This document shows positions 17,310-46,864 of a stretch of 64,000 nt of DNA, in pieces. The notes under the pieces were generated by a model, which saw only the letters and a list, made by a program, of their open reading frames with translations, searched no databases and was not told where the DNA came from. The stretch spans positions 17,298-81,297 of the forward strand of contig VYCM01000110.1 of assembly GCA_009843915.1 (NCBI GenBank), read 5' to 3'. Position numbers and translations under genes: made by a program. The first letter of the stretch is position 1; each line of letters begins with the position of its first letter. This stretch comes from Acidimicrobiaceae bacterium (GTDB lineage: Bacteria; Actinomycetota; Acidimicrobiia; Acidimicrobiales; Aldehydirespiratoraceae).

Positions 17310-18845
17310 GTGCACTCTTTGAGTGTCGAGCTCGGCATCGACGTCCCGATGAGCGACGGGACGAGACTCGCCACCGACGTGATCCGACCAGCAGGCGGCG
17401 GTCCGGTTCCCGCCGTCGTGGTGCGCACCCCCTACAACCGCTGCACTCCGGCGTCGCGCGGTCTCCAGGTCGATGCGTTGGGTCTGGCCGAGGCGGGCTA
17501 CGCCGTGGTGATCCAGGACGTGCGGGGCCGCTTCGCTTCCGGCGGCGACTTCGAGCCGTTCGTCAATGAGGAGGCCGACGGGGTCGACACCGTCGAGTGG
17601 GCGGCCGTGCAGCCCTGGTGCAACGGGCGGGTGGGCATGGCCGGCATCAGCTACCTCGGCTTCTGCCAGCTGGCGACGGCCGTACGCCGCCCGGAGCCGT
17701 TGCAGGCGATCGTGCCCGGACTCACGCCCTGCGATGTGCGTGATGGCTGGATCCAACCGAACGGTGAGGCGAATCACGGGTTCAACCTCGCCTGGATGCT
17801 TGGCGTCCTGCTGCCGGCCGACCCCCGCATGGCCGACCCGGCCGGGGCGCTCGCCGCCTGGGCGCGGCCCGGCGAGACCGCGGCTGGTGGCTCGGCGGTC
17901 GACCGACTCATCGCCGCCAGTCCCCTGGCCGGCGCCTGGCTGGAGTGGAACCGCCCCGACCCGTACGCCGACGCTGAGTCCGTCCCGGTCCGTGACTCCA
18001 TCGCTGGTGTGACGATCCCGGCTCTGGTGGTGGCCGGCTGGTTCGACGTATTCCAGCCCTCGACGTTCGAGCTCGCCGTGGCGCTGGCCGGGTCTGTCCT
18101 GGTTGCCGGTCCCTGGGGCCACGGGGGGCTGCCCTTGGCCCGCGACGCGGGGGCACGCGACCATGGCGCCACCGCCGCGTTCGACCTCGGTGGCGCCCAA
18201 CGGACGTTCCTTGATCGGCACCTGCGCGACGCCGGCACCTCGGCAGCCAAGGCGACGGTGTTCGTGACCGGCGCCAACCGTTGGGAGTCGCTCCCGGCCT
18301 GGCCTGGTCGGACCAGCCGGCTGGCCCTCTTCCCCGCCGCGGGCGGACGGCTCCGCGAAGCTGCCGAGGAGGCAACAGTCGCCGTGGGCCTGGACGCCGG
18401 AGATCCGACGCCCTCGGTCGGGGGGCGGGTCTTCCCCTGGGCACCCGACCTTGTGCCCGGCCCCTTCGACCAGTCGGCACGGGACGCACGCGGCGACGTG
18501 CTCACCTTCACGTCCGAGCCGTTGCCCACCGCCGTGACCGCGGCCGGACCGGTGACGCTCACGGTGGCAACCGACGCGGAGCGCCCTGAGGGGATGGTGT
18601 TCGCGACGCTGAGCGACATGGGGCCCGACGCGGCGGTGTGGAACGTCGCCGACGGCGGCGCGGCCGTCACCGGGCCGAGCACTCGCGTCGAGTTGGGTCA
18701 AGCCGCCCACCAGTTCGGCGCCGGCCACCGTGTACGCCTGACGTTGTCGTTCGGGGCCTTCCCCCGGTACCGGTGGCAACCGGTCGGCGGCCAACGCCAG
18801 ATCAGTCTCGGTTCAGGCACCCGGCTCGAAGTTGGTATCTGGTGA
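17310..18845 (+). CDS. CocE/NonD-family (peptidase S15 / X-Pro dipeptidyl-peptidase fold) hydrolase
   Basis: GTG start. DVRGRF.S.G and the nucleophile elbow GISYLG. 511 aa. Paralogue at 45059-46792. Confidence 0.85.
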   Translation: MHSLSVELGIDVPMSDGTRLATDVIRPAGGGPVPAVVVRTPYNRCTPASRGLQVDALGLAEAGYAVVIQDVRGRFASGGDFEPFVNEEADGVDTVEWAAVQPWCNGRVGMAGISYLGFCQLATAVRRPEPLQAIVPGLTPCDVRDGWIQPNGEANHGFNLAWMLGVLLPADPRMADPAGALAAWARPGETAAGGSAVDRLIAASPLAGAWLEWNRPDPYADAESVPVRDSIAGVTIPALVVAGWFDVFQPSTFELAVALAGSVLVAGPWGHGGLPLARDAGARDHGATAAFDLGGAQRTFLDRHLRDAGTSAAKATVFVTGANRWESLPAWPGRTSRLALFPAAGGRLREAAEEATVAVGLDAGDPTPSVGGRVFPWAPDLVPGPFDQSARDARGDVLTFTSEPLPTAVTAAGPVTLTVATDAERPEGMVFATLSDMGPDAAVWNVADGGAAVTGPSTRVELGQAAHQFGAGHRVRLTLSFGAFPRYRWQPVGGQRQISLGSGTRLEVGIW

Positions 18846-24103: not shown

Positions 24104-25255
24104 ATGAGGCCATCGCAGCCCATCGCGGGGATGCCGCGCTCGGGCATACGCGAGGTTATGGAGCTGGCCAACTCCATCGACGGCGCTATCCGCCTGGAGA
24201 CGGGCGAGCCCAACTTCAACACCCCCCGCCATGTCTGCGAGGCCGCGTCCGAAGCCGCCTTCAACGGTTTCACCAAGTACACCTCCAACGCCGGGATCCC
24301 ACCGCTGCGCGAGGCGCTGGCGGCCAAGGTCACCGAGCGCAACGGCATCAATGCCACCGCTGATCAGGTGGTGGTCACCTCTGGCGCGGTGGCCGGGATC
24401 TACAGCGCCATGGTCTCGCTGGTGGACCCCGGCGCGGAGATGCTGCTGGGCGATCCGAGCTGGCCCAACTACGCCCAGATGATGACGCTGCTGAAGATTG
24501 CGCCGGTCCATTTCCCGCTGCGGTCCGAGGCCGATCTGGTCCCGCAGGCCGCCGACGTCGAGCCTCTGATCACGGAGCGTACGCAGGCCATCCTGCTCAA
24601 CTCTCCGGGCAACCCGACCGGCGCGGTCACCGATGCCGCCGCCATGGCCGAGTTGATGGAACTGGCCCGCCGGCATGACCTGATGGTCTTCTCCGACGAG
24701 GTCTACGACGAGATCTCCTTCGACGGGCCGTACACCCCGGCGGCGCCGCTCGACACCGACGGCCGGGTGATCACGTTCTTCAGCTTCTCCAAGACCTACG
24801 CCATGACCGGCTGGCGGGTGGGCTACCTGGTGGTGCCGCCGGGCGTGTCGCCCCTGATCGTGCGGGCCCAGGAGCCGATCACGTCATGCGTCAACGCTCC
24901 CGCGCAGATGGGCGCCCTGGCCGCGGTCACCGGCCCGCAGGAGTGCGTGGCCGAGATGCGCGACGCCTACCGGCAGAGGCGAGACATGGTCACCGAGTTC
25001 CTCGCCGGCCGGGGCATCCCCCACGTGAGGCCACGGGGCGCCTTCTACCTGATGATCGACGTGAGCGGCAGCGGCAGTTCGGGCAAGGACTTCGTGCTGC
25101 GCCTACTGAACGAGAAGCATGTGGCGGTGGTGCCGGGCGACACCTTCGGCCCCGGCTCGGGCCGGTTCGTGCGCATCTCGCTGGCCACTGCGCCGGATCT
25201 CTTGATGGAGGGCGTGCAGCGCCTGGCCGATGCCGTCGAGGAGTGGGGCGGCTAG
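24104..25255 (+). CDS. Class I/II pyridoxal-phosphate-dependent aminotransferase
   Basis: NSPGNPTG and the PLP-Lys motif SFSKTYAMTGWRVGY. Paralogue at 47425-48582. Confidence 0.9.
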   Translation: MRPSQPIAGMPRSGIREVMELANSIDGAIRLETGEPNFNTPRHVCEAASEAAFNGFTKYTSNAGIPPLREALAAKVTERNGINATADQVVVTSGAVAGIYSAMVSLVDPGAEMLLGDPSWPNYAQMMTLLKIAPVHFPLRSEADLVPQAADVEPLITERTQAILLNSPGNPTGAVTDAAAMAELMELARRHDLMVFSDEVYDEISFDGPYTPAAPLDTDGRVITFFSFSKTYAMTGWRVGYLVVPPGVSPLIVRAQEPITSCVNAPAQMGALAAVTGPQECVAEMRDAYRQRRDMVTEFLAGRGIPHVRPRGAFYLMIDVSGSGSSGKDFVLRLLNEKHVAVVPGDTFGPGSGRFVRISLATAPDLLMEGVQRLADAVEEWGG

Positions 25256-28200
25256 CTCGGGTGAAGGGCCGCTGGGTCGACCGCTACGTCGATCCGAGCT
25301 ATTGCACCGGTACGGGCGAAGAGGGCCCGGCTGGTGTCGCGGTCCAGCCCGTCGACACCGGCGACCTCCTGACCGTCGGTCAGCACGGCGCGCGTCCACG
25401 GCGCGGAGTCATCCAGGCGATACACCACCGGCGCGCCGCAGTATGTGAAGCCGAGCATTCCCTCTTCGAGGCGTCCGCCTTGGCCCAGCGGCAGCCACGG
25501 GCGCGCCGCGGCCAGGAACTCTGCCGGGTCCAGCAGCACGGGGGCGAAGCGCAGGCATCCGTCCTCGACCTGCAGGCCGAGCTCTCCCCAGCGCAGCAGG
25601 ATGCCCTCCTTGACGGCACCGGTCATGCCCGGCTGTTGAGCACCGGTGTGGCCCGGTGTGTGCGAATGGGGGTCGAGCGGGAAGGCGCCGTGGTCTGCGA
25701 CCGTCTTGGACGGACCGAGACCTGATCTGACTCGCCGGTAGCGCTGGACCATCTCCGCCACGAGGCTGCGGTCGGCGCCGGCATCGGCCGCCGCGAAGAT
25801 GCACTGCTGCAAGCGGAACATCAGCTTCATCACCATGTGCCAGTAGACGCAGCCAAGCCCCTCGTAGCGGTACATCGTCTGTGACCGGCCCGCGGACTCC
25901 CGGTGCCTGAAGACCGCCTCGTACGCGTCGAGTACCTCGCAGCGGCCGGCGGAGTCCAGCCGATGTGCCGGGTCCAGCGAATCGAGGGCATCCTCGAGGT
26001 CCTGCTCCCGGCGCAGGTGGGCCGCGAAGCGCACGCTGCCCTCCTCGTCGCGGTGCGCGATGCCGTGGCGGTCACCGATCAGGCTGCTCAGAGCTGGCCC
26101 GACCAGGCCGTCAGGCACCCGGTTCTTCTCCATGAACGCCGGCGGCGGAGTGTCCGGGTGCAGCAGGAAGGAACGCTGGTCGGGGCGGTACAGCTCGCTG
26201 CCGAAGAGGGCGTCGACCAGTTCGATCACCTCCCGCGGGCCTGCGAGAGATGAGCTCATGGCCGCTGCCTGGCCCTCGAGCATCGCGTAGAGGGGCGCCA
26301 GTTCAGCGGTATCCGGCCGGAGCCGCAGCAGCTGGTAGGCGTGCGCCAGGCCGTCAGTCCGCCAGGCTTCGGCCACGATCCTGTCGAGGTGCGGTAGGGC
26401 AGCCTGGATGCATCGCCGCAACCCGTCGACGCTCGCCCCGGCTGCAGGCTCGGGCGCCCGGCCGTAGACGCGGGAGCGGTACGAGGAGCCACAGCGACCG
26501 AGCTGGTCGAGCAGGCCTCGGCGAGCCTCGGCAGTGATCGGGCCCTCCTGGGCCAGGACGCGGTGGGCTTCGAGAGCCGCTTCAACGCCGTCCAGCCACT
26601 CCAGCACCGCCGGCGAGACCGGCACCTCCGCCACCGGCGACCGTCCCAGGAGACCATCGAGGAACGCCAGGTACTCGCGCAGATGGAACACGGTCACCAC
26701 CGACACGCCGATGCCCACCAGGGCGTTGTTGGCGTCGTTCCACTCGGGTCGCTGCGTGTTGAGCCAGATCCCCCCGCCCGGGACCAGGCTCGAGAGCTTC
26801 GCCAGGGCTGGTACCAGCAGCTTTTCCGTCAGAGAAGCGTGATGCACCCCTCCGTCAGCGCCTGGGACCAACCGCCCGTCGGCGCCGATCTCCGCCACCC
26901 GCTCGTCGACGCTCGCCTGGGCGGCGTGATCGAACTCCAGAGTGTTCTTCGGATCGCTCACCATGATGTCGTAGGGCAGTATCCGGTAGGGCACGTCGGC
27001 GTACGAGAACTCGAGCCGGTCGAGCCTCGCCTCCAGCGAGTCCGGATGGAACCGGTGCACCGCGTCGAGGATGCTGTGCAGGTAGACGATCTGGTGATCG
27101 CCCCAGTAGCCGAAGTTCGACCAGGCCCCTTCCCCGGGCGTCTCCCAGTCGATTCCCTCGCTGCTGATCCGGTAGGGGTTGTGGCCGTCCATCGTGGAGG
27201 CGTTGAGGAACTTGGCGAGAAAGGACTCGGCGAAGCCGGGGAAGCTGTGCACGAGCGCCTGCCAGTTCTGGAATATGTCGCGCCAGTTGCCCTCGTACGC
27301 GAAGAGCCGATCACTCGCCGAGGTGCCATCGCCGATCTGGAAGGTGTTCCAGGGGCGGCTCGGGTCGCCGTGGCGGCGGCTGAACGTCAGCGGTAGGTAC
27401 TCGTTGACCAGCCGGACCAGCGTCGCATCCTGTGACACGGCATCCCGCAGGCTGTCGAGCTCGACGACGGCTTCGATCTCGCCGGTGAGCTGCTCGAAAC
27501 GAACAGCGGCGGGGCGGTTGCGGGAGGCCACGAAGCGGCCCACCTCGGCCACTGCCACCCGGTGGTCGTCCACCGGCGCGCCGCCGCGCATGCAGTTGTA
27601 CGTCACGTTGGCCAGGTGGCTTGCGACCGCGGCCCGGTCGGCGGTCTCCTGCCGGGCGTCGGCGTAGGAGATCAGGCTCATCACCTCGTGGTGGGCCCGG
27701 TCGAGCGCCGCGCTGGTGGCCGCCCCGGACGCGCTGGCGTCGGCGGTGCGCAGCCACCGGCGCAGGCGGGCTGCGTCGGCGTGGTCGCGGTCGACGTCGG
27801 CCACGATCGTCCACCGCAGGGGCGACTCCGGGCTGATGCGGGCCGCCGCGGAGGTGAGGAAGGCGCCCTTGACGCCGGTAGCCAGGTGCTCGGTCTCGAG
27901 GGCCTTGCCCGAGCGGAAGCTGCGGATCTGGCGGTCGGACATGGCCGTGACCGCGCCGTCGAGCCCGCGTGACCACACCACCGAGGCCAGCAGTGACTCG
28001 GCCGGCTCGGCGAGGTCGCCGACCAGGGCCTCGAGGGTGAACAGGGCCAGACCCGACTCGGGGTCGAACTCCGAGCGCCGGTAGGCGTCGATGAGCGTGC
28101 TCGACGTTTGCTGGGTCTCGAGATCCACGCCGGCCGGCAGCACGTCGATTAGCCCGTCCAGCAACTCGACATCGCATCCGGAGGCGTCCGCCGATGCGGT

Positions 28201-28659
28201 CAGCTCGCAAGTGCGCACCAGTCCGTAGTCGGCCGCGGCGGCCCACGTGTAGCGGAAGGTGAGGCCCAGGTCCGGGTTGTGCTCCTCGAACGTGAGCCGG
28301 TCCCCGCAGAGCGTCTTGGCCACCGACCTGCGCACCCGGCCGCAGGGCGCATGGGGCGCGAACGGCTCCCATGGGTCCGCGGCGCCGCCGACCCTGACAA
28401 GGGTGAATGGGCCGGTCCGGCCGCCGCTGCGGTGCAGGCGGTCGTCGGTCTCGTAGGCGAACAGGGCGTGCCCCGGGCTGCGTCGCCCCGCGGTCAGCGC
28501 GCCCGTGCTGGACACGAACAGCCAGAGGTCGCCCGGGCTGGTCACGTTGACCAGGAACGGGTCGAGCAGGTCGTAGTTCTCGACCCGGTACCACTCGATG
28601 CCCTCGGAGACGCAGACCCCTCCCTGGGGCTGGGAGCCGGCGGTCGGTGCGCGGTTCAA
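25252..28659 (-). CDS. Large cytoplasmic (alpha/alpha)6-type glycoside phosphorylase-like protein (GH94-clan-like; candidate GH149/GH161-type beta-1,3-glucan phosphorylase)
   Basis: About 1135 aa with no signal peptide. The only canonical in-frame start after the GH16 stop is TTG 28659 (TTGA overlap). Ordered motifs NWRDIFQNW, RPEWNDANNAL, GCVYWH and QQPGMTGA resemble, from memory, the GH94 RD..QD, DWND (catalytic Asp), phosphate-His and TG(T/S)A motifs. The gene sits directly downstream of a GH16 gene. The function is an inference. Confidence 0.5.
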   Translation of the reverse strand: MNRAPTAGSQPQGGVCVSEGIEWYRVENYDLLDPFLVNVTSPGDLWLFVSSTGALTAGRRSPGHALFAYETDDRLHRSGGRTGPFTLVRVGGAADPWEPFAPHAPCGRVRRSVAKTLCGDRLTFEEHNPDLGLTFRYTWAAAADYGLVRTCELTASADASGCDVELLDGLIDVLPAGVDLETQQTSSTLIDAYRRSEFDPESGLALFTLEALVGDLAEPAESLLASVVWSRGLDGAVTAMSDRQIRSFRSGKALETEHLATGVKGAFLTSAAARISPESPLRWTIVADVDRDHADAARLRRWLRTADASASGAATSAALDRAHHEVMSLISYADARQETADRAAVASHLANVTYNCMRGGAPVDDHRVAVAEVGRFVASRNRPAAVRFEQLTGEIEAVVELDSLRDAVSQDATLVRLVNEYLPLTFSRRHGDPSRPWNTFQIGDGTSASDRLFAYEGNWRDIFQNWQALVHSFPGFAESFLAKFLNASTMDGHNPYRISSEGIDWETPGEGAWSNFGYWGDHQIVYLHSILDAVHRFHPDSLEARLDRLEFSYADVPYRILPYDIMVSDPKNTLEFDHAAQASVDERVAEIGADGRLVPGADGGVHHASLTEKLLVPALAKLSSLVPGGGIWLNTQRPEWNDANNALVGIGVSVVTVFHLREYLAFLDGLLGRSPVAEVPVSPAVLEWLDGVEAALEAHRVLAQEGPITAEARRGLLDQLGRCGSSYRSRVYGRAPEPAAGASVDGLRRCIQAALPHLDRIVAEAWRTDGLAHAYQLLRLRPDTAELAPLYAMLEGQAAAMSSSLAGPREVIELVDALFGSELYRPDQRSFLLHPDTPPPAFMEKNRVPDGLVGPALSSLIGDRHGIAHRDEEGSVRFAAHLRREQDLEDALDSLDPAHRLDSAGRCEVLDAYEAVFRHRESAGRSQTMYRYEGLGCVYWHMVMKLMFRLQQCIFAAADAGADRSLVAEMVQRYRRVRSGLGPSKTVADHGAFPLDPHSHTPGHTGAQQPGMTGAVKEGILLRWGELGLQVEDGCLRFAPVLLDPAEFLAAARPWLPLGQGGRLEEGMLGFTYCGAPVVYRLDDSAPWTRAVLTDGQEVAGVDGLDRDTSRALFARTGAIARIDVAVDPAALHPS

Positions 28660-29744
28660 CTGGCCGCCTCCGCTGTCTCGGTGACGGGCTGCCACACCCG
28701 GACGTGATCGACGTAGAGGGCGACGGGGAACTCGAGGTCCAGCGCTATTGGACCGGGGAACTGGCCGCCCACGGCCAGGTTCAGGATCATGAAGAACTCG
28801 TGGTCGAAGACCCATTCCCGGTTGCCGGTCGCGTCCCGGGTGAGGGTGTAGTACGGCTCGCCGTCGTAGAACCAGGTGATGCCCTCGTAGTCCCACTCGA
28901 CCGCGTATGTGTGGTAGTCGTCGGCGATGAGGTAGTCCTGCCGGTTCCATCTGGTCAGGCCGACCGCCCCCGCGTAGCCGGGTCCGTGGATGGTGCCGAG
29001 GATCAAGTCCGGCTCGCGCCCGACGTACTCCATGATGTCGATCTCGCCCACGAACGGCCAGTGGTTCTGGGGGTCGTCGGAATGGCGGTCGAAATGGGCG
29101 CCGAGCATCCAGAACGCGGGCCACAGCCCCGCGCCGGAGGGCACCTTCAGGCGGGCCTCGAAGCGCCCGTACTTGAACTCCCTCAGTCCCTTCGTCAGCA
29201 TGCGGGCCGAGGTGTAGTAGGAGTTCTCGTACTTCTCCTGGTGGGCCTCGATGACCAGCAGCCCGTTCTCGAGCCGGGCGTTCTTGGGCCGCGACGTGTA
29301 GTACTGGGCCTCGCCGTTGCCCCAGCCCCAGCCTCCGATGTCGTAGGTCCAGTTGGTGAGGTCGATGGCGTCGCCGTCGAACTCGTCGTGCCAGACGAGT
29401 TCCCATCCCTCGATTTCGGGGATGGGAACCGGGTCCGGAGCGGTGACCGTCGGCGGGGGCGGCGGCAGCGTGGTGGTTGTCGTCGTGGTTGTTGTCGTCG
29501 TTGTGGACGTTGTGGTTGTCGTCGTGGTCGTGGATGTCGTTGTGGTGGTGGAGGTTGTTGTGGTCGCGGGCGTTGTTGTGGATGTCGTTGTCGTTGTGGT
29601 GGTGGGCGCGGAGCTGGTGGTGGCGACCGTCGGCGCGGCCGAGGCCGGAGCCTCCTGCGAAGGCGGCGACTGGTCGGATCCGCAGCCTGCGGCCAACGCG
29701 GCCGCAAGCGCGGCACCCAGGGCGAGCCCGGACAGCCGGCTCAT
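28656..29744 (-). CDS. GH16-family beta-glucanase (laminarinase/licheninase-like) lipoprotein with poly-Thr linker
   Basis: Start MSRLSGLALGAALAAALAAGC at 29744 (GGGAG upstream). Catalytic ExDxxE as GEIDIMEY. About 50 aa of Thr-rich linker follow the lipobox-like Cys. Confidence 0.85.
   Translation of the reverse strand: MSRLSGLALGAALAAALAAGCGSDQSPPSQEAPASAAPTVATTSSAPTTTTTTTSTTTPATTTTSTTTTTSTTTTTTTTSTTTTTTTTTTTTLPPPPPTVTAPDPVPIPEIEGWELVWHDEFDGDAIDLTNWTYDIGGWGWGNGEAQYYTSRPKNARLENGLLVIEAHQEKYENSYYTSARMLTKGLREFKYGRFEARLKVPSGAGLWPAFWMLGAHFDRHSDDPQNHWPFVGEIDIMEYVGREPDLILGTIHGPGYAGAVGLTRWNRQDYLIADDYHTYAVEWDYEGITWFYDGEPYYTLTRDATGNREWVFDHEFFMILNLAVGGQFPGPIALDLEFPVALYVDHVRVWQPVTETAEAAS
29469..29621 (-). 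repeat. Low-complexity ACN-codon tract encoding the poly-Thr linker of the GH16 lipoprotein
   Basis: The plus strand shows degenerate GTNGTNGTN periodicity (gtggttgtcgtcgtggttgttgtc...). The translation is about 50 residues that are almost all Thr with occasional Ser/Pro/Ala, followed by PPPPP. Confidence 0.9.
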
Positions 29745-29787: not shown

Positions 29788-30594
29788 CTACAGGGCCAGC
29801 GGCCCGGGCGGGCTGAGCTGCGCGGTGATGCCCCCGTCCACATAGAGCACCTGGCCGGTGATGTAGCTCGCTTCACAGGAAGCGAGGAAGGCCACCGCCG
29901 ACGCGATGTCGTCGACCGTGCCCGGACGCTTCAGCGGGATCTGCGTCACGATCTCGGGCGGCCCGGTGGTGCTGTCCTCCGGCTGCCACCGGTAAGTGCG
30001 AGTCACGCCCGGCCCGACCGCGTTCACCCGGATCCCGAGCGGCCCGAGCTCCACCGCCATGGCCCGGGTCATCGCGTTGACGGCACCCTTGGTCATGTCG
30101 TAGGGGAGGCCGTGCTGGTGGGCCCGGTCGGCTCCTACCGACGACACCAGCACGATGCTCCCGCCGCCATTGGCGCTCATGGCCGAAGCGGCCCTCTGCG
30201 AGCACAGGTACGGGCTGCGCACGTTGGTGGCGAGCTGGAGGTCGAGCAGGTCGCGGTGCTCCTCGAGAAGGTGCCGCCGCTGGAGGTCGGCGGCGTTGTT
30301 CACTAGGACGTCGATGGCGCCGAAGCGCTCCAGGGTGACGTCGAACACGGCGTCCACCGCGTCCTGGACCGTCAGGTCCGCGCAAACCGCCTCGACAGCC
30401 GCTCCCAGCTCCTCGAGGGTCCGCACCGTGTCGTCGAGGGACGCGCAGTCCTTGTCGGCCGCGACCAGGTTCATGCCTTCGTGGGCCAGGCGGCAGGCGA
30501 TGCTCTGGCCGATGCCCTTGGCCGCGCCGGTGACGACTGCGGTCCGGCCTGCGAGGTCGGGGTACCGGCCGGCGCGGCCTTCAGTGTTCGGCAT
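29788..30594 (-). CDS. SDR-family oxidoreductase
   Basis: Start MPNTEGR at 30594. VTGAAKGIG, NNAA and YDMTK motifs. Confidence 0.85.
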   Translation of the reverse strand: MPNTEGRAGRYPDLAGRTAVVTGAAKGIGQSIACRLAHEGMNLVAADKDCASLDDTVRTLEELGAAVEAVCADLTVQDAVDAVFDVTLERFGAIDVLVNNAADLQRRHLLEEHRDLLDLQLATNVRSPYLCSQRAASAMSANGGGSIVLVSSVGADRAHQHGLPYDMTKGAVNAMTRAMAVELGPLGIRVNAVGPGVTRTYRWQPEDSTTGPPEIVTQIPLKRPGTVDDIASAVAFLASCEASYITGQVLYVDGGITAQLSPPGPLAL

Positions 30595-30599
30595 GGCGG

Positions 30600-31796
30600 T
30601 CACGGCCGGGCCGGGGTGCCGTCGGGCAGACGGGTCTGGGTCCATTGCTCCACCGTCTCGTCGCAGGGATGCTCGGCGGCGAGCCTCTCGTCGATGTCGA
30701 TTCCGAGACCGGGGCTGTCGCCGGGGTACAGGTAGCCGTCGACCGGGCGGGGCAGTCCCGGGAACATCTCGTAGGTGAGGTCGGACGGCTGCGGCCATTC
30801 CTGGATCCCGAAGTTCGGGGCCCACATGTTCAGGTGCAGGTTGGCCGCGTGGCCCACCGGCGACGTGTCGTCGGGCCCGTGCCAGGCCGTGCGGATCCCG
30901 AACATTGCGGCGAAGGAGGCCACGCCCCGCGCCGGGGTGATGCCGCCGATCTGGCTCACGTGCATGCGCACGAAATCGATGAGCCGGCCGGTGATCAGCG
31001 GACGCCACTCGTGGGGGTTGTTGAACAACTCGCCCATCGCCAGCGGCGTGGCGCACTGCTGCCTGAGCGTCGAGAACCACCCGGTGTCCTCGGGCGCGAA
31101 CGGGTCCTCGAGGAAGAAGAGCCGGTATTGCTCCAGGTCCTTGGCGAACTGCACCGCGTCGATGGGGTGCAGCCGCTCGTGGACGTCGTGCAGCAGCTCG
31201 ATGTCGTCGCCCACCGTGCTGCGGAGATGGTCGATCATCCCGAGCATTGCCCGGCCGTAGCCGCGGGGGTCGAAGTAGTTCCCCGGGGGCGCGGTCGGCG
31301 GCAGGCGCAGCCCGTCGGCAGGGCCGCCGTAGCCGCCCATCTGGACTCGCACGTGCGCGAACCCCTGCTCGATCAGCGCCACGGCGTTGTCGGCCACCTC
31401 GTGGGCGTCGCGGCCGTCGGCGTGCACGTAGGTGGCGGCGGCCTCGCGGGTTCGCCCGCCGAGCAGCTGGTACACGGGCATTCCCGCCTGCTTGCCCTTG
31501 ATGTCCCAAAGGGCCTGGTCCACGCCGGAGACGGCGTTGTTGAGCACCGGGCCGTTGCGCCAGTAGCCGTGGTTCATCGACATCTGCCAGATCTCCTCGA
31601 TGCGGTCGACGTCGCGTCCCACCAGAACGGGGGCCAGGTGGCGCTCGATGGCCGCCTGCACCGCGAAGGCGCGCTGGGTGAACGTCGCGCAGCCGAGCCC
31701 GAACAGTCCCGGCTCGGAGGTGTCGACCCTCACCACAACCAGCCGGCAGGCGTCCGGCTGGGTGAGGATGGCCCTGACGTCTGTGATCTTGACCAT
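30600..31796 (-). CDS. Enolase-superfamily D-mannonate/D-gluconate dehydratase (ManD subgroup)
   Basis: MVKITDV.., ALWDIKGKQAGMPVYQLLGG, HDVHERL and FLEDP. Length of 398 aa is typical of ManD/RspA-like proteins. Confidence 0.8.
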   Translation of the reverse strand: MVKITDVRAILTQPDACRLVVVRVDTSEPGLFGLGCATFTQRAFAVQAAIERHLAPVLVGRDVDRIEEIWQMSMNHGYWRNGPVLNNAVSGVDQALWDIKGKQAGMPVYQLLGGRTREAAATYVHADGRDAHEVADNAVALIEQGFAHVRVQMGGYGGPADGLRLPPTAPPGNYFDPRGYGRAMLGMIDHLRSTVGDDIELLHDVHERLHPIDAVQFAKDLEQYRLFFLEDPFAPEDTGWFSTLRQQCATPLAMGELFNNPHEWRPLITGRLIDFVRMHVSQIGGITPARGVASFAAMFGIRTAWHGPDDTSPVGHAANLHLNMWAPNFGIQEWPQPSDLTYEMFPGLPRPVDGYLYPGDSPGLGIDIDERLAAEHPCDETVEQWTQTRLPDGTPARP

Positions 31797-31867: not shown

Positions 31868-32770
31868 TCAGCCCTTCACCGCCCCTGCGGTCAGGCCCGA
31901 CACGATATAGCGCTGCAGGAACAGGAACAGCACCACCATCGGCGTCATCAGGATCAGGACCGCGGCGGCCATCGGCGGCCAGTTAGCGCCGTAGAGGCCC
32001 TCGAAAGCGATCAGGCCCCGCGTCACCGGGTAGAGGTCGTCGTTGGTCAGGTAGATGATCGCCAGCACCAGTTCGTTCCAGAGGCCTATGGCGTGCAGGA
32101 CAGTAACCGTGGCGATGGCCGGGCGGATCAGCGGCACGATGATCTTGAACACGAAGCGGTAGTACCCGCACCCGTCGATGGCCGCCGACTCGTCCAGCTC
32201 GCGGGGGATCGCCTTGATGTAGTTGACGAGGATGATGATCCCGATCGGGTTGACCAGGAACAGCAGGATGTAGCCGGCGCGGGTGTTGAACAGGCCCAGG
32301 TTGAGGATCAACTGGAATTGCGGGATGAGCGCCGGGGGCAGGAACAGCGCGATCACGTAGAGCAGCAGGATGTACCGCCCGCCCTTGAGGTAGCCGCGGG
32401 CGATCGGGAACGCCACCAGCACCGACGTGACCACGCAGACCGCAGTGGCCACCGTGGTGTAGACGACGGAGTTGACCAGGTAGCGGGCGAACTGGGCTTC
32501 GTTCCAGGCCTCGGTGAAGTTCTCGAAGCGGAGCGACTCCGGCATGCCGGTGGGGTTCTGGAAGAACTCGGGCAGCGTCTTGAACGCCGTGGTGACCAGC
32601 ATCAGCAGCGGCCCGATGTACAGCACCGCGAACACCAGAAGGATCACGTACGACGCCAGCTTCTGCCGCTTGAGCCGGACGAGCCATCCGGGCGGCTCGC
32701 CGCGGCCAGCGCGCTCGGGCCCGTGCGGCGTGGTCTTGCGGGGCGCCTGGGGCGTCTCGACGGCGGTCAT
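31868..32770 (-). CDS. Carbohydrate ABC transporter permease (CUT1)
   Basis: Multi-TM, EAA-loop ESAAIDGCG. ATGA overlap with the upstream permease. Confidence 0.9.
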   Translation of the reverse strand: MTAVETPQAPRKTTPHGPERAGRGEPPGWLVRLKRQKLASYVILLVFAVLYIGPLLMLVTTAFKTLPEFFQNPTGMPESLRFENFTEAWNEAQFARYLVNSVVYTTVATAVCVVTSVLVAFPIARGYLKGGRYILLLYVIALFLPPALIPQFQLILNLGLFNTRAGYILLFLVNPIGIIILVNYIKAIPRELDESAAIDGCGYYRFVFKIIVPLIRPAIATVTVLHAIGLWNELVLAIIYLTNDDLYPVTRGLIAFEGLYGANWPPMAAAVLILMTPMVVLFLFLQRYIVSGLTAGAVKG

Positions 32771-33753
32771 CCGATGTACCTCTTCTCGCGGCGGGACAGC
32801 CAGGCGTGGGTCACCAGCGCGAACACCAGCACCAGGATGAACAGCGCGATGGACGCGGCCGCGGCGTAGCCCTGCCGGAAGGCGGACGACACCGACCCCG
32901 AGGTCTGCCCGAAGCCCTCGGCGAACACCAGGTAGCCGAGCACTTGGGTGCCCGGGCGGTACCCGATGAGCACCAGGAACAGCTGCCAGGCCTGCAGCGA
33001 CCCGATGATGTTGAGCAACAGGTTGGTGTTGACGGCTGGCGTCAGCAGCGGCCAGGTGACGTTACGGAACAGTTGCCACTTGCCGGCGCCGTCGATGCGG
33101 GCGGCCTCGTAGAGCTCGTTCGGGATGGTCTGCATCCCGGCGAGGAAGATCACCATCGTGATGCCGGCGTTCGCCCAGATCTGCACCACGATCACCCAGG
33201 CGAACGCTTGCCGGGGCTGGCCGCCCAGGAGCTCCGACGTCCAGCCGAAGAGCTGGAAGAACTCGGCGGCCGGGCCGCCCCGCGGCAGCAGAAACAGCTT
33301 CCAGATGAGACCCTGGATGGCGACACCGAGGATCACCGGCATGAAGAACAGCGTCCTGAAGAACTTCTTGCCCCGGATCTTCTGGTTCAGCAGCACCGCG
33401 AACAGCAGGCCGATGCCGAACTGGATCACGGTGACGAAGAGGCAGAAGTAGACGGTCCTGCGCAGCGCGGCGATGTTGTCGCGCGAGGCCGCCCCCCGCA
33501 GCAGGAACTCGTCGTAGTTCTCGAAGCCGATCCAGTTGATGGCTATGCCGCGGATGCCGGTGGCGTCGGTGAACGAGTAGACGGCGGTGGCCAGAGAGGG
33601 CCCGACCGCCATCACCAGGTACAGCAGGAAGCCGGGCAGCAACAGCAGGACCGGAGTCGCGCTCCGCCAACCCCTGGCGAACAGGTAGCTTCGGTGGATC
33701 ACAGTCGTGGTGTGCGGGATCCCTGGGTTCCCCCCGGTGGGGGACTCCCGCAC
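32767..33753 (-). CDS. Carbohydrate ABC transporter permease (CUT1)
   Basis: Multi-TM, EAA-loop EAARIDGAG. Start uncertain (GTG 33753 or GTG 33702). Confidence 0.85.
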   Translation of the reverse strand: MRESPTGGNPGIPHTTTVIHRSYLFARGWRSATPVLLLLPGFLLYLVMAVGPSLATAVYSFTDATGIRGIAINWIGFENYDEFLLRGAASRDNIAALRRTVYFCLFVTVIQFGIGLLFAVLLNQKIRGKKFFRTLFFMPVILGVAIQGLIWKLFLLPRGGPAAEFFQLFGWTSELLGGQPRQAFAWVIVVQIWANAGITMVIFLAGMQTIPNELYEAARIDGAGKWQLFRNVTWPLLTPAVNTNLLLNIIGSLQAWQLFLVLIGYRPGTQVLGYLVFAEGFGQTSGSVSSAFRQGYAAAASIALFILVLVFALVTHAWLSRREKRYIG

Positions 33754-33807: not shown

Positions 33808-35436
33808 CTAGCCGGCGTCGAGCCCGGCCTGGAGGTCGGCCTGGGCCTGGGCTGCCAGCGCGGCCGCGTCGGTCCACTCGTTGAACGGAGCGAACCAGGC
33901 CGGGGCCTGCGATGCGTTGGACCACTGGCCTGCGCCTGCGGGCGCCGCCCAGTACTGCTCGAAGCCGACCCGGTAGTTGGCCAGGTACGGCGCGACCTCA
34001 GCGCCGAGCTTGGTGTTCAGGCCGGCCGTGGGCTGCGTCGGGATGAAGCCGACCGCGTTCGCGAACGCCTGGTAGTTGTCCGGCTCCGAGAAGGCGGCCA
34101 GGTAGGCGAGCGACTCCTCGGGGTGCGGGGTGTCGGCCGCGATGGCCCAGCCCTGGTCGTACTTCCCGAACAGGTACTTGTTGTCCTCGGGGTCGTCGCT
34201 GCCCGGGAACGGGATGTAGGTCCAGTCGAACCCGACGTCGTCGAGGGCGGGTGCCTGCCACACGCCAGTGGGCATCATGGCGACGTCGCCGGCCGCGAAC
34301 CGGGCCGGAGCGGCGTCATGGGAGAGGCCGGAGACGCCGTCCTCGAGCATCTCGGTGGTGAACACCTGCATCCGGCGCAGCATCTCGGTGGAGCGCTCGT
34401 CGTCCCAGCGGATGGCGCCGGTCCACAGTCCCTCCACCAGGGCCTCCTGGTCGGGGTACATCGCGCCGAGCAGGCCGTAGGCGCCGACGAAGATCGGCCA
34501 GCCGTCGCCGCCGCCTAGCGTCATGCACTCGTTGCCGGAGGCCTTGAACGTGTCGCATGCGGCGACCAGCTCGCCCCAGGTCGTCGGGACATCCACCCCG
34601 ACCGAGTCGAACAGGTCGAGGTTCAGGAACATGCCGCTGTAGGACACCCGTCCGAGGTTGATCGCGTACAGCCTGCCCTCGAACGAGCCCGCGTCGTCGA
34701 GGGTCGCCCTGTCGTAGTGGTCGACGAACGGCTGGCGGGTGAGATCCATCAGCAGGCCCGCCTCTATGAGGGTCTGCCAGTTCGGGGGCTGAATGCCCGA
34801 CATGTACGGCTGGGCCGCGTTGGAGAAGCCGAAGATGTCGATGACGTCGATGTCGCCCGCGGTCAGGCGGGTCTGCGTCGAGATGCTGAGGTCGCCCGGC
34901 GCCACCACCGACATGTCGACGGTGACGTGCGGGTTGGCCGCCTCGAAGGAATCGTTGAACGCCTCCATGAACTCCACCATCGGCGGGTTCTGGTGCACCA
35001 GCACGCGCAGCGCCACGTCCTCCTTGGGGGGCTCGGCAGCCGCGGCTGCGGCCGCTGCAGCCTCTTCGGCTGCGGCCTCGGCGGCGGCTGCTTGTTCGGC
35101 CGCTGCGGTCGCCTCGGCGTCGGCGGCGTCCGCCGCTGCTTGCGCCTCGGCCAGCTGAGCCTCGAGATCCGCGACCGCGCCAGCGTCAGCGTCGGCGTCG
35201 GCCTGCGCAGCCGCCAGCGCGGCCTCGGCCTCTTCGGCTGCGGCCTCGGCGGCTGCGGCCTCTGCAGCGGCCTCGTCGGCCATCGCCTGGGCCGCGGCGG
35301 CGTCAGCCTGGGCCTGGTCCACTGCCGCGGTATCAACTACGGCGACGGGGGCTGGCTCGTCGTCGCCGCAGGCCACAGCCACTAGGCATATGGCCAGCAG
35401 CACGGCGAGCAGCCTGCCGATGGATGATTTAAGCAT
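33808..35436 (-). CDS. Extracellular solute-binding lipoprotein (CUT1 sugar ABC) with about 100-aa Ala/Glu/Asp-rich N-terminal spacer
   Basis: ATG 35436 with AGGAGGA upstream. Signal peptide ending LVAVAC, a low-complexity A/E/D/Q region, then a typical SBP domain. Confidence 0.85.
   Translation of the reverse strand: MLKSSIGRLLAVLLAICLVAVACGDDEPAPVAVVDTAAVDQAQADAAAAQAMADEAAAEAAAAEAAAEEAEAALAAAQADADADAGAVADLEAQLAEAQAAADAADAEATAAAEQAAAAEAAAEEAAAAAAAAAEPPKEDVALRVLVHQNPPMVEFMEAFNDSFEAANPHVTVDMSVVAPGDLSISTQTRLTAGDIDVIDIFGFSNAAQPYMSGIQPPNWQTLIEAGLLMDLTRQPFVDHYDRATLDDAGSFEGRLYAINLGRVSYSGMFLNLDLFDSVGVDVPTTWGELVAACDTFKASGNECMTLGGGDGWPIFVGAYGLLGAMYPDQEALVEGLWTGAIRWDDERSTEMLRRMQVFTTEMLEDGVSGLSHDAAPARFAAGDVAMMPTGVWQAPALDDVGFDWTYIPFPGSDDPEDNKYLFGKYDQGWAIAADTPHPEESLAYLAAFSEPDNYQAFANAVGFIPTQPTAGLNTKLGAEVAPYLANYRVGFEQYWAAPAGAGQWSNASQAPAWFAPFNEWTDAAALAAQAQADLQAGLDAG
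35032..35331 (-). repeat. Low-complexity GCN/GAR tract encoding an Ala/Glu/Asp/Gln-rich spacer of the SBP
   Basis: About 100 codons dominated by Ala with periodic Glu/Asp/Gln. It contains an internal direct repeat, gcctcttcggctgcggcctcggcggc, at about 35058 and about 35228. Confidence 0.85.
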
Positions 35437-35507
35437 GTTGTTGTCTCCTCCTGTTGGTTAGATGACGTCTTGCGACGCAATGGGAGATCGGGGAACTGCG
35501 GCGGGCA

Positions 35508-36536
35508 TCACGCCTCCGGCTCCGCAGTGGGGGTGGCGCCGCACGACTCGCGCACGGCTAGTTCGGTCGGGAACACCACGTGCTCAGGCGTGGAGGCGCC
35601 AGCGATCACGGTCGTGAGCAGGCGCACAGCCCGCTCGCCGACCTCGGTCACGGGCTGCACGACCGACGTCAGCTGGGGCGCGGTGAGGTCCGGCGGCACG
35701 ATGCCGTCGAACGACACCACCGAGATGTCGCCGGGGCAGTTGAGTCCGGCCTCCCTGATGGCTCTCAACGCTCCGACAGCCATGCGGTCCGAGGCCACGA
35801 AGACGGCGTCGGGCCGCTCGGCCAGCAGCCGGTCCATCGCCCTGCGGCCTGACTCCTGGGACCAGTCGCCCTCGACGATGCGGTCCTCGACGCTCAAGCC
35901 CGCTTCGGCCAACCCTTCGAGGAAGCCGCTGCGGCGATCCACTCCGGCGGTCGTGTTCGAGGGCGCCGCAATGAGAGCGGGACGGCGGCACCCGAGCCCG
36001 GCGAGGTGCAGGGCCGCGGTCCGGGCGCCGGCGCGGTTGTCAACGTCGACGCAGAAGGTGGAGCCGGCGTTGTCGGGCCGCCCGACCACCACGAAGGGCA
36101 TGTTGGTGCCCTGCATGTGGTCTATCAGGGGGTCGCCCCTGGTGGTGGCGGTGACGATCACGCCGTCGACGAGGCCGGGCGTGACGACCCGGGAGATGAT
36201 CGAGCGTTCGTCGGGCCCGTCGCCGAACAGGAACAGGGCCAGCGTCATGTCGACTTCGTTGGTCGCGCTGCTGATGCCCAGGATGAGCCGGCCGAAGTAG
36301 GGGTCGTCGAACAGGGTCCCGGCCGCACTGGGTATCACGAGCCCGATGACGCCGGTGCTGTTCGACGCGAGCGAGCGGGCCGCCGCGTGGGGGCGGTAGC
36401 CGGTCTCGGCGATCACGGCCTCCACCCGCCGCTTGGTCTCGGAACTCACGTGCCCACCGTTGACGACCCGCGAGACGGTGGAGCGCGAGACGCCGGCGCG
36501 GCGCCCGACATCCTCCAAGTTCAGCCGTCGTTCCAT
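35508..36536 (-). CDS. LacI-family transcriptional regulator (CelR/CebR-like by operator)
   Basis: HTH LEDVGRRAGVSRSTVSRVVNG. Start MERRLN at 36536 with AAGGAG upstream. A perfect TGGGAGCGCTCCCA palindrome lies in its own promoter. Confidence 0.9.
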   Translation of the reverse strand: MERRLNLEDVGRRAGVSRSTVSRVVNGGHVSSETKRRVEAVIAETGYRPHAAARSLASNSTGVIGLVIPSAAGTLFDDPYFGRLILGISSATNEVDMTLALFLFGDGPDERSIISRVVTPGLVDGVIVTATTRGDPLIDHMQGTNMPFVVVGRPDNAGSTFCVDVDNRAGARTAALHLAGLGCRRPALIAAPSNTTAGVDRRSGFLEGLAEAGLSVEDRIVEGDWSQESGRRAMDRLLAERPDAVFVASDRMAVGALRAIREAGLNCPGDISVVSFDGIVPPDLTAPQLTSVVQPVTEVGERAVRLLTTVIAGASTPEHVVFPTELAVRESCGATPTAEPEA

Positions 36537-36547
36537 GGATCTCCTTT

Positions 36548-36563
36548 TTGGGAGCGCTCCCAA
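36548..36563. promoter_or_regulatory. LacI-family operator O1, perfect 16-bp palindrome TTGGGAGCGCTCCCAA (CelR/CebR-box core TGGGAGCGCTCCCA)
   Basis: Perfect palindrome read directly. It abuts the -10 hexamer and covers the expected transcription start. The core is identical to the published Thermobifida CelR / Streptomyces CebR operator as I recall it. Confidence 0.8.
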
Positions 36564-36591
36564 CCATATGAAGACAGTTGAAGCTTGTCAA
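36563..36591 (-). promoter_or_regulatory. Sigma-70/HrdB-like promoter of the lacI-family gene and downstream glycan operon
   Basis: Minus strand reads TTGACA (36591-36586), a 17-nt spacer, then TATGGT (36568-36563), about 27 nt upstream of ATG 36536. It sits in the most AT-rich stretch of the region. Confidence 0.7.
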
Positions 36592-36615
36592 GTCCACAAC
36601 TATTCGAAGTAAGTG

Positions 36616-36629
36616 TGAGAGCGCTCTCA
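36616..36629. promoter_or_regulatory. Second LacI-type operator O2, perfect 14-bp palindrome TGAGAGCGCTCTCA
   Basis: Perfect palindrome 25 nt upstream of the -35 hexamer. It shares the central GAGCGCTC core with O1. The centre-to-centre distance to O1 is 67 bp. Confidence 0.65.
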
Positions 36630-38282: not shown

Positions 38283-39293
38283 CTAGAACGGCTGGGGGTT
38301 GAAGCAGCGGAAGCCCACTCCGGCCTCCACCTCGTGGGGCGGGTGGTCGCTCCAGCACTGCTCCAGAGCGTGGGGGCATCGGGGGGCGAAGCGGCATCCC
38401 GGGGGCATCATCTGCATGGGCGGGACCAGCCCCGGAATCGGAACCAGCTCCCGGCGTTTGCGGCTCACGTGGGGGAGGGCCCGCAGCAGGCCCTGCGTGT
38501 AGGGATGGCGCGGGTTGGAGAACAGCTCGTCGACCGGACCCTCCTCCACGATCTCGCCCGCGTACATCACCGCCACCCGGTCGGCGATCGAAGCCACCAC
38601 AGCCAGGTCGTGAGTGATGAGCAGCATCGACATGTGGCGGTCCTGCTGCTCGGAGCGCAGCCGCTCGAGGATCTGGGCCTGCACGGTCACGTCGAGCGCG
38701 GTGGTGGGCTCGTCGGCGATGAGGATCTCGGGGTCCAGCACCAGGGCGGTGGCGATCATCACCCGCTGGCGCATCCCGCCCGACAGCTCGTGCGGGTAGG
38801 AGTCGAAGCGCTCGGTGGGGGCGGGCAGGCCGACGGCGCGCAGGATCTCGACGCTCATTTCGCGGGCCTCGGCCTTGGTGGCGTCCCGGTGCGTGCGGAT
38901 CACCTCGGTCATCACCTGACCCACTGTGAACACCGGATCGAGCGATGTCAGCGGATCCTGGAAGATCATCGAGATCCGCTCCGAGCGCACGTCGCGAACC
39001 CGGCGCTCGGGCAACTCGGTGAGGTCGGTTCCGTCGAAAACGACCTCACCGGACGTGATCCGCACGGGGGGAGTGGGCAGCAGCCGCATGATCGACAGCG
39101 CGGTGATCGTCTTGCCGCAGCCGCTCTCGCCCACCAGGCACAGCACCTCGTTGGGGTTGATGTCGAAGGACACGTCTCGGACCACGTCGAAGGATCCCTC
39201 CGGCGTGGCCACCGCGGTGTGGAGGTTGCGGACCGACAGGACCGGCGCCTTGGTCGAGCCGTTGGTGGCGGCCTGAACTGAGGACATGCTCAC
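38283..39293 (-). CDS. Oligopeptide/dipeptide ABC transporter ATP-binding protein (OppD/DppD type)
   Basis: Walker A GESGCGKT, signature LSGGMRQR, Walker [12 protein letters not shown], and C-terminal HPYTQGLL / CRFAPRC. Confidence 0.9.
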
Positions 39294-39300
39294 GGCGGGC

Positions 39301-40218: not shown

Positions 40219-40237
40219 GCCAGGGTGCCCCGGGTGC

Positions 40238-41197: not shown

Positions 41198-41240
41198 GGC
41201 GCCGCCGCTGTGCTCGTCAGGCTCGTGGCCCCTATGCCCC

Positions 41241-43046: not shown

Positions 43047-43129
43047 GGGACGCCCCCTTTTCCAGAGTGATGAGTGTGCGGCCGACACGGTGTGGCTACG
43101 GCCGGAGCCGAAACCGTATACCAAATCGT

Positions 43130-46792: not shown

Positions 46793-46864
46793 GGCTCCTC
46801 TGCGGTGTGTCAGTATCGGCCCGGCCTGCCGCGGGCGGACCGCGAACTACCGGGGAGTGTGTCG

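Follow-up and report, generated by a model that had tools for sequence, protein, structure and literature searches.

A GH149-family phosphorylase, predicted to act on β-1,3-glucans, encoded at the end of a putative laminarin-utilisation operon in an Acidimicrobiia bacterium

Results

A conserved cluster of sugar-uptake and glucan-degrading genes

Eight genes follow one another on the same strand of the window, that is, the whole stretch of 64,000 nt that was analysed. They encode a LacI-family repressor, a solute-binding lipoprotein, two permeases, a dehydratase of the ManD type, a short-chain dehydrogenase (SDR), a GH16 glucanase and, in the last position, a GH149 protein (Table 1). The identical eight-gene order was found in two orthologous loci (L082 and L081), while the locus L001, from Ca. 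Poriferisocius, has the order LacI-SBP-permease-permease-GH16-GH149 with partner proteins that are 75-81% identical. Of 82 GH149 loci, which come from several phyla, 17 have a GH16 gene directly upstream of the GH149 gene and on the same strand, and 47 have one within 10 kb. The other window ORFs tested encode peptide transporters, S15 peptidases and oxidoreductases with no relation to glucans, and among the tested ORFs there was neither an ABC ATPase of matching type nor a phosphoglucomutase or β-glucosidase.

Table 1. Positions of genes, regulatory elements and active-site motifs in the window.
Feature	Position	Strand	Basis or remark
GH149 β-1,3-glucan (laminaridextrin) phosphorylase (predicted)	25252..28659	-	1135 aa, cytoplasmic; NF058639, PDB 6HQ6, Foldseek
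E933 to H941 (YEGLGCVYWH), donor-site Glu and phosphate-site His	25837..25863	-	Pro_7066 E951, H959
W640-N641-D642 catalytic loop, D642 predicted catalytic Asp	26734..26742	-	Pro_7066 W651-N652-D653 by alignment
R460-D461, RD motif recognising sugar-1-phosphate	27277..27282	-	Pro_7066 R470/D471 by alignment; role from PMC6771811
GGAGG, putative ribosome-binding site of the GH149 gene	28667..28671	-	inside the GH16 3′ end, 7 nt before TTG; read from sequence
GH16 endo-β-1,3-glucanase, laminarinase type	28656..29744	-	362 aa; Pfam PF00722, PDB matches
Short-chain dehydrogenase (SDR)	29788..30603	-	271 aa; NF005559; GTG start overlaps dehydratase stop by 4 nt
Enolase-superfamily acid-sugar dehydratase, D-mannonate dehydratase (ManD) subgroup	30600..31796	-	398 aa; Pfam MR_MLE_N/C
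Sugar ABC permease, MalG/UgpE-like	31868..32770	-	300 aa; Pfam BPD_transp_1, NCBIfam; 81% identical in L001
Sugar ABC permease, MalF/UgpA-like	32767..33753	-	328 aa; Pfam, NCBIfam, L001 comparison
Extracellular solute-binding lipoprotein (SBP_bac_8)	33808..35436	-	542 aa; Pfam PF13416; signal MLKSSIGRLLAVLLAICLVAVA/C
LacI-family repressor, start ATG 36536	35508..36536	-	342 aa; Pfam LacI and Peripla_BP_3
Perfect 14-bp palindrome TGGGAGCGCTCCCA	36549..36562	.	directly after the -10 element; identical to Streptomyces CebR box
Putative sigma-70-like promoter TTGACA, 17 nt, TATGGT	36563..36591	-	read from sequence
Second 14-bp palindrome TGAGAGCGCTCTCA	36616..36629	.	upstream of the -35 element; counterpart in L082 and L081

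The neighbour of the GH149 gene had been described as a GH16 glucanase, and three lines of evidence agree on this: the Pfam match (PF00722, E = 1.5e-20), the catalytic motif EIDIME at aa 234 (E-x-D-x-x-E), and its closest solved relatives, which are endo-β-1,3-glucanases/laminarinases (3ATG, 3AZX, 2HYK, 3ILN and 2VY0; E = 1e-58 to 1e-64). Its signal peptide is of the lipoprotein type (MSRLSGLALGAALAAALAAG/C), and about 90 aa of linker rich in Thr and Pro follow it. The gene of the solute-binding lipoprotein has a strong AGGAGG ahead of its ATG. For the LacI repressor (343 aa in the L082 orthologue), TTG 36563 was rejected as the start in favour of ATG 36536, because it falls inside the operator. 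The dehydratase resembles PDB 3T6C, 3TW9 and 4IHC (E about 1e-153), and the ManD and galactonate-dehydratase models match it below their own cut-offs; the SDR, whose gene is intact in the window and also present in L082 and L081, scores 223 bits against NF005559, a 'glucose 1-dehydrogenase' subfamily model with a cut-off of 215. These two genes, whose role is uncertain, break up the block that runs from the transporter to GH16.

Ahead of the cluster, two palindromes resembling the CebR box flank the putative promoter, TTGACA-17-TATGGT. The TTGACA is kept in L082 and L081, as is the palindrome TGGGAGCGCTCCCA, the sequence of which is that of the CebR box of Streptomyces (PMC4358012, PMC5332605). 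The LacI repressor thus probably controls the cluster promoter through these two palindromes.

The long ORF, its start codon and its junction with GH16

The ORF that closes the cluster runs from TTG to TAG with no internal stop, and its GC3 of 0.89 is similar to that of the neighbouring genes. The four motifs singled out in the preliminary description of this DNA are all present, displaced by no more than 1-2 nt: NWRDIFQNW (aa 458-466, nt 27262-27288), RPEWNDANNAL (aa 637-647, nt 26719-26751), GLGCVYWH (aa 934-941, nt 25837-25860) and QQPGMTGA (aa 1008-1015, nt 25615-25638). That description had also held that the protein has no signal peptide, and indeed a hydrophobic core is missing from the N-terminus (LNRAPTAGSQPQGGVCVSEGIEWYRV); the top 15-residue Kyte-Doolittle mean within the first 60 aa is 1.2, compared to 2.1 in the GH16 signal peptide. 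Likewise, the TTG (28659-28657) and the TGA of GH16 (28658-28656) form the reported TTGA, in which the two genes have 4 nt in common. What did not hold was the claim that this TTG is the sole in-frame start: the frame is open to 29406, with further start codons at GTG 28695, ATG 28815, GTG 28896, ATG 28950, GTG 29124 and ATG 29406, all of which fall within the GH16 coding sequence.

The best start, and the most likely one, is TTG 28659, because a GGAGG precedes it by 7 nt, orthologues at 89-98% identity are likewise 1135 aa long with 100% coverage, and the gene calls in the two orthologous contigs (L082 and L081) begin at this same TTG, again with an overlap of 4 nt. Comparable sites (GGAG/GAGGAGG) were found in these two contigs, where the overlap and its upstream GGAGG-type site are retained although the surrounding bases differ; the L001 junction has a 2-nt spacer instead of the overlap. 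Taken with the TTGA and GGAGG themselves, this conservation argues, as had been proposed, that synthesis of GH149 is probably coupled to the translation of GH16. A start that is uncoupled at the TTGA, either at GTG 28695, 12 codons upstream, or by independent initiation, seems improbable. In its favour, GTG 28695 shares the reading frame, which stays open further upstream, and TTG is a weak start codon, but the placement of the GGAGG and the persistence of TTG and its overlap amid differing flanking bases speak against such a start, and nothing in the homologues matches the 12 additional residues, which makes GTG 28695 the less likely codon. Coupling and independent initiation at the same TTG are not separable by sequence alone.

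The long ORF belongs to the GH149 family

The protein passes the NCBIfam equivalog model NF058639 ('1,3-beta-D-glucan phosphorylase, GH149 family'; cut-off 1150 bits) with 1190.9 bits, and the alignment joins its aa 15-1127 to model positions 9-1133 of 1134. The score is just 41 bits over the cut-off. With phmmer, it matched PDB 6HQ6 in one stretch (aa 19-1127 aligned to residues 47-1169 of the chain; E = 1e-254), and a profile built from an alignment of 23 sequences (A1) matched the same chain with 1426 bits. This chain is Pro_7066 (PDB 6HQ6/6HQ8), a bacterial GH149 β-1,3-oligosaccharide phosphorylase from a metagenome (PMC6484121, PMC6771811). Pfam returned no family for the long protein at E <= 1 except two noise hits, which does not count against homology since Pfam has no matching model. 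Wherever the source names the relatives of the protein, the label is only 'hypothetical protein'.

The AlphaFold model of the monomer (mean pLDDT 84, pTM 0.85) gave a TM of 0.91 to 6HQ6/6HQ8 in Foldseek, over about 1145 columns at about 36-37% identity, and the order of its secondary structure fits an N-terminal beta-sandwich, a helical linker, an (alpha/alpha)6 barrel and, at the C-terminus, a jelly roll. The lowest-confidence parts of the model are the active-site loops (aa 446-453, 637-645, 923-935 and 1003-1011). The preliminary description had remarked on the large spacing between the motifs and suspected extra domains; these correspond to the Dom 1 and Dom 2 insertions of Pro_7066 (PMC6771811), and both regions align to Pro_7066 with short gaps only. 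It had further left the choice between GH149 and GH161, or else a new phosphorylase or hydrolase family. The HMM search favours GH149, and the end-to-end matches by NF058639, 6HQ6 and Foldseek exclude a new family. Both the sequence comparisons and the predicted structure clearly point to a member of the known GH149 family.

In the active site, the residues singled out for Pro_7066 (PMC6771811) correspond here to R460, D461, W640, N641, D642, E933 and H941, which are invariant across A1 (23 sequences, 44-92% identity), including the WND aspartate that a phosphorylase of the kind first described would have to conserve. The surface oligosaccharide site of Pro_7066, E990/Y993/E994, is replaced in the alignment by Q972, R975 and R976, so that the handling of long chains may differ from that of Pro_7066; conservation of this motif is poor once identity falls below 60%, and it is variable and does not define the family (PMC6771811).

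The absence of this site bears on whether the GH149 fold serves another substrate or direction here than in Pro_7066, such as a branched or mixed-linkage β-glucan, another β-1,3-linked sugar, or intracellular β-1,3-glucan synthesis driven by glucose-1-phosphate. The equivalog score barely above the cut-off, the reversibility of GH149 reactions in vitro (PMC5827456) and the fact that just two members have been characterised point the same way. We nevertheless regard such a departure as quite unlikely, given that every donor-site and phosphate-site residue is invariant and that the layout is catabolic, with the gene tied to a secreted GH16 of the laminarinase type behind an uptake system. Very unlikely is a hydrolase, that is, a GH-Q-like barrel that would have shed its phosphate dependence as some GH65 and GH15-related enzymes have: phosphorylase and hydrolase activities do occur together in some related barrel families, but no homologue aligned here departs from the phosphorylase arrangement of one catalytic Asp and a phosphate-site His, and both characterised GH149 enzymes are phosphorylases. 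Placement in GH161, GH94 or an unclassified family of clan GH-Q is scarcely conceivable. The clan-level motifs are common to GH161 and GH94 and Pfam has no match whatever, but the GH149 matches run end to end, whereas GH161 chains match in fragments only (E = 7.5e-10; by profile E = 6e-26, confined to about 300 positions, 515-823; TM 0.67 at 14-15% identity) and no chain named GH94 appeared in the single-sequence search of PDB chains or, at E <= 0.01, in the profile search. The likeness to GH94 is at the level of the fold (TM 0.45-0.59), which fits clan GH-Q.

Discussion

We estimate a probability of about 0.88 that the long ORF encodes a cytoplasmic inverting phosphorylase of GH149 (clan GH-Q) acting on β-1,3-glucans (laminaridextrins), as the last gene of a putative laminarin-utilisation operon whose structure is read from the sequence. 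This reading builds on established family membership, catalytic residues, fold, and gene order with its conservation. We infer from it the substrate, the direction of the reaction in vivo, the specificity of the transporter, the regulation and the coupling.

In this monoderm host, the GH16 enzyme, anchored to the membrane on a long Thr-rich stalk, would cut laminarin outside the cell; the lipoprotein binding protein and the two permeases would then take up the oligosaccharides, served by an ATPase encoded elsewhere; and GH149 would phosphorolyse the imported β-1,3-gluco-oligosaccharides in the cytoplasm to glucose-1-phosphate and glucose. The LacI repressor would act on the promoter through the two palindromes. 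At the active site, D642 in the WND loop is predicted to be the general acid, with R460/D461 and E933 holding the -1 glucose and H941 at the phosphate site. EgP1, the GH149 enzyme of Euglena gracilis, and Pro_7066 phosphorolyse β-1,3-gluco-oligosaccharides with a DP of at least 2 (PMC5827456, PMC6484121), and by analogy the protein would use Pi to release the non-reducing-end glucose as alpha-glucose-1-phosphate, acting down to laminaribiose so that one free glucose is left.

A protein whose named relatives read as hypothetical is thus given a specific predicted function, and Acidimicrobiia, some of them apparently sponge-associated, would carry a compact laminarin-utilisation operon around a phosphorylase, which bears on which organisms consume algal β-1,3-glucan in the sea. 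What is new is of small measure, namely the Actinomycetota host, the layout of the cluster and the embedded dehydratase/SDR pair; knowledge of the GH149 family itself is unchanged. A literature search on GH149 with Acidimicrobiia, sponge or Actinobacteria showed no relevant paper among the matches listed.

The protein shares with Pro_7066 full-length homology, the four-domain architecture with the Dom 1 and Dom 2 insertions, and the RD, WND, Glu and His residues of the active site; it differs at the surface site, where E990/Y993/E994 read Q/R/R, and in its host, a high-GC member of the Acidimicrobiia (Actinomycetota) rather than the Gram-negative marine groups of the family description (PMC5827456, PMC6484121). 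With EgP1 it has the family and the predicted mechanism in common (PMC5827456), but EgP1 is a eukaryotic enzyme that carries a targeting peptide and whose substrate is the organism's own paramylon-type glucan, whereas the present protein comes from a bacterium and its gene is part of an operon for uptake and degradation. The cluster combines traits of both types of GH149 cluster (PMC5827456): like type I, it has a LacI regulator and an ABC importer beside the phosphorylase, and like type II and the PULs of Bacteroidetes, an extracellular GH16 clustered with it. Type I clusters differ in having an Opp/Dpp-type transporter with two ATPases of its own and no laminarinase, and type II clusters in having a TonB-dependent receptor; here, an SBP_bac_8 sugar importer lacking an ATPase stands alongside a lipoprotein GH16 overlapping GH149 and a ManD-type dehydratase with an SDR.

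GH161 enzymes (PapP; PDB 9QQK, 9GY9) belong to the same clan and act on the same substrate class, and they typically occur in Gram-positive bacteria whose ABC importers are devoid of ATPase genes (PMC6484121). Their similarity to the protein is only distant, however, and they cannot cleave laminaribiose, for which they need a β-glucosidase or a GH94 enzyme as partner; neither turned up among the genes of the cluster and the tested window ORFs, which fits a GH149 enzyme acting down to DP 2. The CebR-CebEFG system of Streptomyces resembles the cluster in that a LacI-family repressor adjoins a sugar ABC importer with no ATPase and the operator TGGGAGCGCTCCCA is identical, but that system handles cello-oligosaccharides, whereas the cluster enzymes here are predicted to be specific for β-1,3-glucan.

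Because the importer is separated from GH16-GH149 by a dehydratase of the ManD subgroup and an SDR of the glucose-1-dehydrogenase subfamily, it is conceivable, if doubtful, that the operon splits the oligosaccharides two ways. Glucose-1-phosphate would enter glycolysis, and oxidation of the one free reducing-end glucose would yield gluconate, whose dehydration would give 2-keto-3-deoxygluconate, a branch of the non-phosphorylative Entner-Doudoroff type. The thought of gluconate comes from the gluconate dehydratases of the ManD subgroup; to our knowledge, no pairing of a dehydratase and an SDR with GH149 clusters has been described. Alternatively, and as part of the same tentative suggestion, the clade, which lacks the surface site of Pro_7066, may differ in the chain length or branching that it prefers.

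The 1135-residue protein belongs to family GH149

Translation of the minus-strand frame ending at position 25252, which is open for 1384 codons, gave a protein of 1135 aa without internal stops when begun at the TTG at 28659. Its third-position GC (0.89) is similar to that of the adjacent genes. The long ORF and the order of four motifs reported in the preliminary description were both borne out (see table), as was the absence of a signal peptide, since the N-terminus has no hydrophobic core. That description had proposed a GH149/GH161-type phosphorylase or a new family, to be examined by HMM search and structure prediction, and both approaches support GH149. A Pfam search with the protein returned no match. 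The NCBIfam equivalog NF058639 ('1,3-beta-D-glucan phosphorylase, GH149 family') matched it end to end at 1190.9 bits (cut-off 1150). The sole strong match among solved structures was the crystallised GH149 enzyme Pro_7066 (6HQ6/6HQ8; E = 1e-254, a single stretch covering aa 19-1127), whereas in this single-sequence search GH161 chains gave only fragmentary matches (E = 7.5e-10). When a profile built from 23 homologues was searched against structure chains, 6HQ6 scored 1426 bits versus 94 bits for GH161, and no chain named as GH94 was found.

An AlphaFold model built on the 23-sequence alignment (mean pLDDT 84, pTM 0.85) gave, on superposition, TM scores of 0.91 against 6HQ6/6HQ8, 0.67 against GH161, 0.59 against laminaribiose phosphorylase of GH94, and 0.44-0.49 against the phosphorylases for cellobiose and chitobiose. 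Such a descent from GH149 through GH161 to GH94 in the similarity of the predicted fold is what membership of GH149 within clan GH-Q would lead one to expect. By every feature open to testing, the protein is a member of GH149.

Active-site residues, insertions and start codon

The residues named in Pro_7066 are W651-N652-D653, R470/D471, E951 and H959, with D653 the predicted catalytic residue (PMC6771811). After correcting for the PDB chain numbering, which runs 19 ahead of that in the paper, the alignment placed their counterparts at W640-N641-D642, R460/D461, E933 and H941, and all seven were invariant in the 23-sequence alignment at identities down to 44%. Dom 1 and Dom 2, the insertions specific to GH149, can each be aligned with short gaps only, matching the larger spacing between motifs remarked on earlier. 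In contrast to Pro_7066, the surface oligosaccharide site (E990/Y993/E994) is not kept, the aligned residues being Q972, R975 and R976; the authors of the structure describe this site as variable in distant family members (PMC6771811).

The lowest-confidence regions of the AlphaFold monomer (aa 446-453, 637-645, 923-935 and 1003-1011) carry or flank the motifs, lying before NWRD, in the WND loop, before YEGLG and at QQPGMTG. The low confidence may reflect loops that gain order only in the dimer or once substrate is bound.

The TTG at 28659-28657 does share bases with the GH16 stop (TGA, 28658-28656) in a TTGA overlap, but it is not the sole in-frame start as had been claimed: six more lie upstream, the closest being GTG 28695. 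Judged from sequence, TTG 28659 remains the best choice because GGAGG lies 7 nt before it, because the closest homologues are of equal length with full coverage, and because the gene calls in two orthologous contigs (L082 and L081) share both this TTG start and its overlap.

Features of the GH149 locus (window coordinates)
Feature	Position (nt)	Strand	Residues	Remark
S15 X-Pro dipeptidyl-peptidase	17310-18845
Class I/II aminotransferase	24104-25255	plus
GH149	25252-28659	minus	1135 aa
QQPGMTGA	25615-25638	minus	1008-1015	GH149 motif
GLGCVYWH	25837-25860	minus	934-941	GH149 motif
RPEWNDANNAL	26719-26751	minus	637-647	GH149 motif
NWRDIFQNW	27262-27288	minus	458-466	GH149 motif
GH16	28656-29744	minus		EIDIME catalytic motif present
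SDR	29788-30603	minus		'glucose 1-dehydrogenase' subfamily; start overlaps dehydratase stop by 4 nt
Dehydratase	30600-31796	minus		ManD subgroup, enolase superfamily
Sugar ABC permease	31868-32770	minus
Sugar ABC permease	32767-33753	minus
CCCATTGCGTCGCAAGACGTCAT	35458-35480			LacI-SBP intergenic
Solute-binding protein (SBP)	33808-35436	minus		lipoprotein
LacI-family regulator	35508-36536	minus		start set at ATG 36536
Promoter-like region	36549-36629	minus		upstream of LacI gene
Opp/Dpp-type peptide ABC transporter set	38283-43124
S15 X-Pro dipeptidyl-peptidase	45059-46846

A conserved gene cluster predicted to act on beta-1,3-glucan

The GH16 protein encoded directly upstream carries a lipoprotein signal peptide and a linker of ~90 residues (85% Thr/Ser/Pro/Ala); among solved structures, endo-beta-1,3-glucanases and laminarinases are closest to it (E about 1e-63). 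The unusually long linker joins the lipobox Cys to the catalytic domain (aa 22-112) and is near-pure poly-Thr, with as many as 12 Thr in a row and then PPPPP. It probably serves as a stalk that keeps GH16 away from the membrane, and is possibly O-glycosylated.

The eight-gene order is identical in both orthologous contigs, where the GH149 proteins share 89% and 81% identity with that of the window. In Ca. Poriferisocius, the nearest species representative (62% identity), the genes run LacI, SBP, permease, permease, GH16, GH149, with partner proteins 75-81% identical and the dehydratase and SDR missing, indicating that the transporter and regulator belong with the GH16-GH149 pair. This pairing is common, since GH16 lies within 10 kb in 47 of 82 GH149 loci spanning many phyla and directly upstream on the same strand in 17, and it has been described before in type II clusters and in PULs (PMC5827456).

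The dehydratase/SDR pair sits between the permeases and GH16, and is shared with L082 and L081, the L081 dehydratase being truncated (204 aa). The dehydratase also occurs in two other GH149 loci (L002 and L052). The pair may convert free glucose via gluconate to KDG.

In the mechanism that we propose, the tethered GH16 would cut laminarin-type beta-1,3-glucan outside the cell, and the lipoprotein SBP would bind the oligosaccharides for import, with the ATPase encoded elsewhere. GH149 would then use inorganic phosphate to release glucose units as alpha-glucose-1-phosphate, by analogy continuing down to laminaribiose, as demonstrated for Pro_7066 and the Euglena gracilis enzyme EgP1 (PMC5827456, PMC6484121). 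Such activity would account for the beta-glucosidase missing from the cluster, where none was seen. Synthesis of GH149 would be coupled to translation of GH16 by the 4-nt overlap together with the ribosome-binding site inside the GH16 gene.

Candidate promoter and operators

Upstream of the LacI gene we found a promoter-like TTGACA-17 nt-TATGGT, with a perfect 14-bp palindrome, TGAGAGCGCTCTCA, just upstream of the -35 element and another, TGGGAGCGCTCCCA, directly after the -10 element. The latter is identical to the CebR box described in Streptomyces (PMC4358012, PMC5332605). The two palindromes around the promoter-like site, which recur in both orthologous contigs, suggest that LacI to GH149 form one repressor-controlled transcript; a CebR-type candidate operator would head a beta-1,3-glucan cluster in Acidimicrobiia. 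The longest LacI ORF, from TTG 36563, was rejected because that start falls within the candidate operator; the ATG is preceded by AAGGAG and fits the orthologues (342-343 aa) better.

In the LacI-SBP spacer, CCCATTGCGTCGCAAGACGTCAT is near-identical in L082 and L081, and the remaining spacer is divergent. It includes the palindromes TTGCG-T-CGCAA and GACGTC, and might function as an internal promoter element or as another operator.

Relatives and genomic surroundings

Those close relatives that carry a name come from metagenome-assembled genomes labelled Acidimicrobiaceae, Acidimicrobiales or Acidimicrobiia, and window GC is 65-71%. Published GH149 members come mainly from Proteobacteria, Bacteroidetes and Euglenophyceae, whereas the host here is an actinomycetotan. 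The layout also differs from published clusters in combining type I and type II features and in embedding the dehydratase/SDR pair, although these departures are modest. Every named homologue returned by the protein search carried the label 'hypothetical protein', so the GH149 annotation is useful, yet will not surprise specialists.

The aminotransferase gene converges on GH149, here and in L082, and their stop codons overlap (25252-25255), leaving no space for a terminator between them. Otherwise, the surroundings of the glucan cluster comprise peptide and amino-acid use, including two S15 X-Pro dipeptidyl-peptidase genes and a peptide transporter set, together with oxidoreductases.
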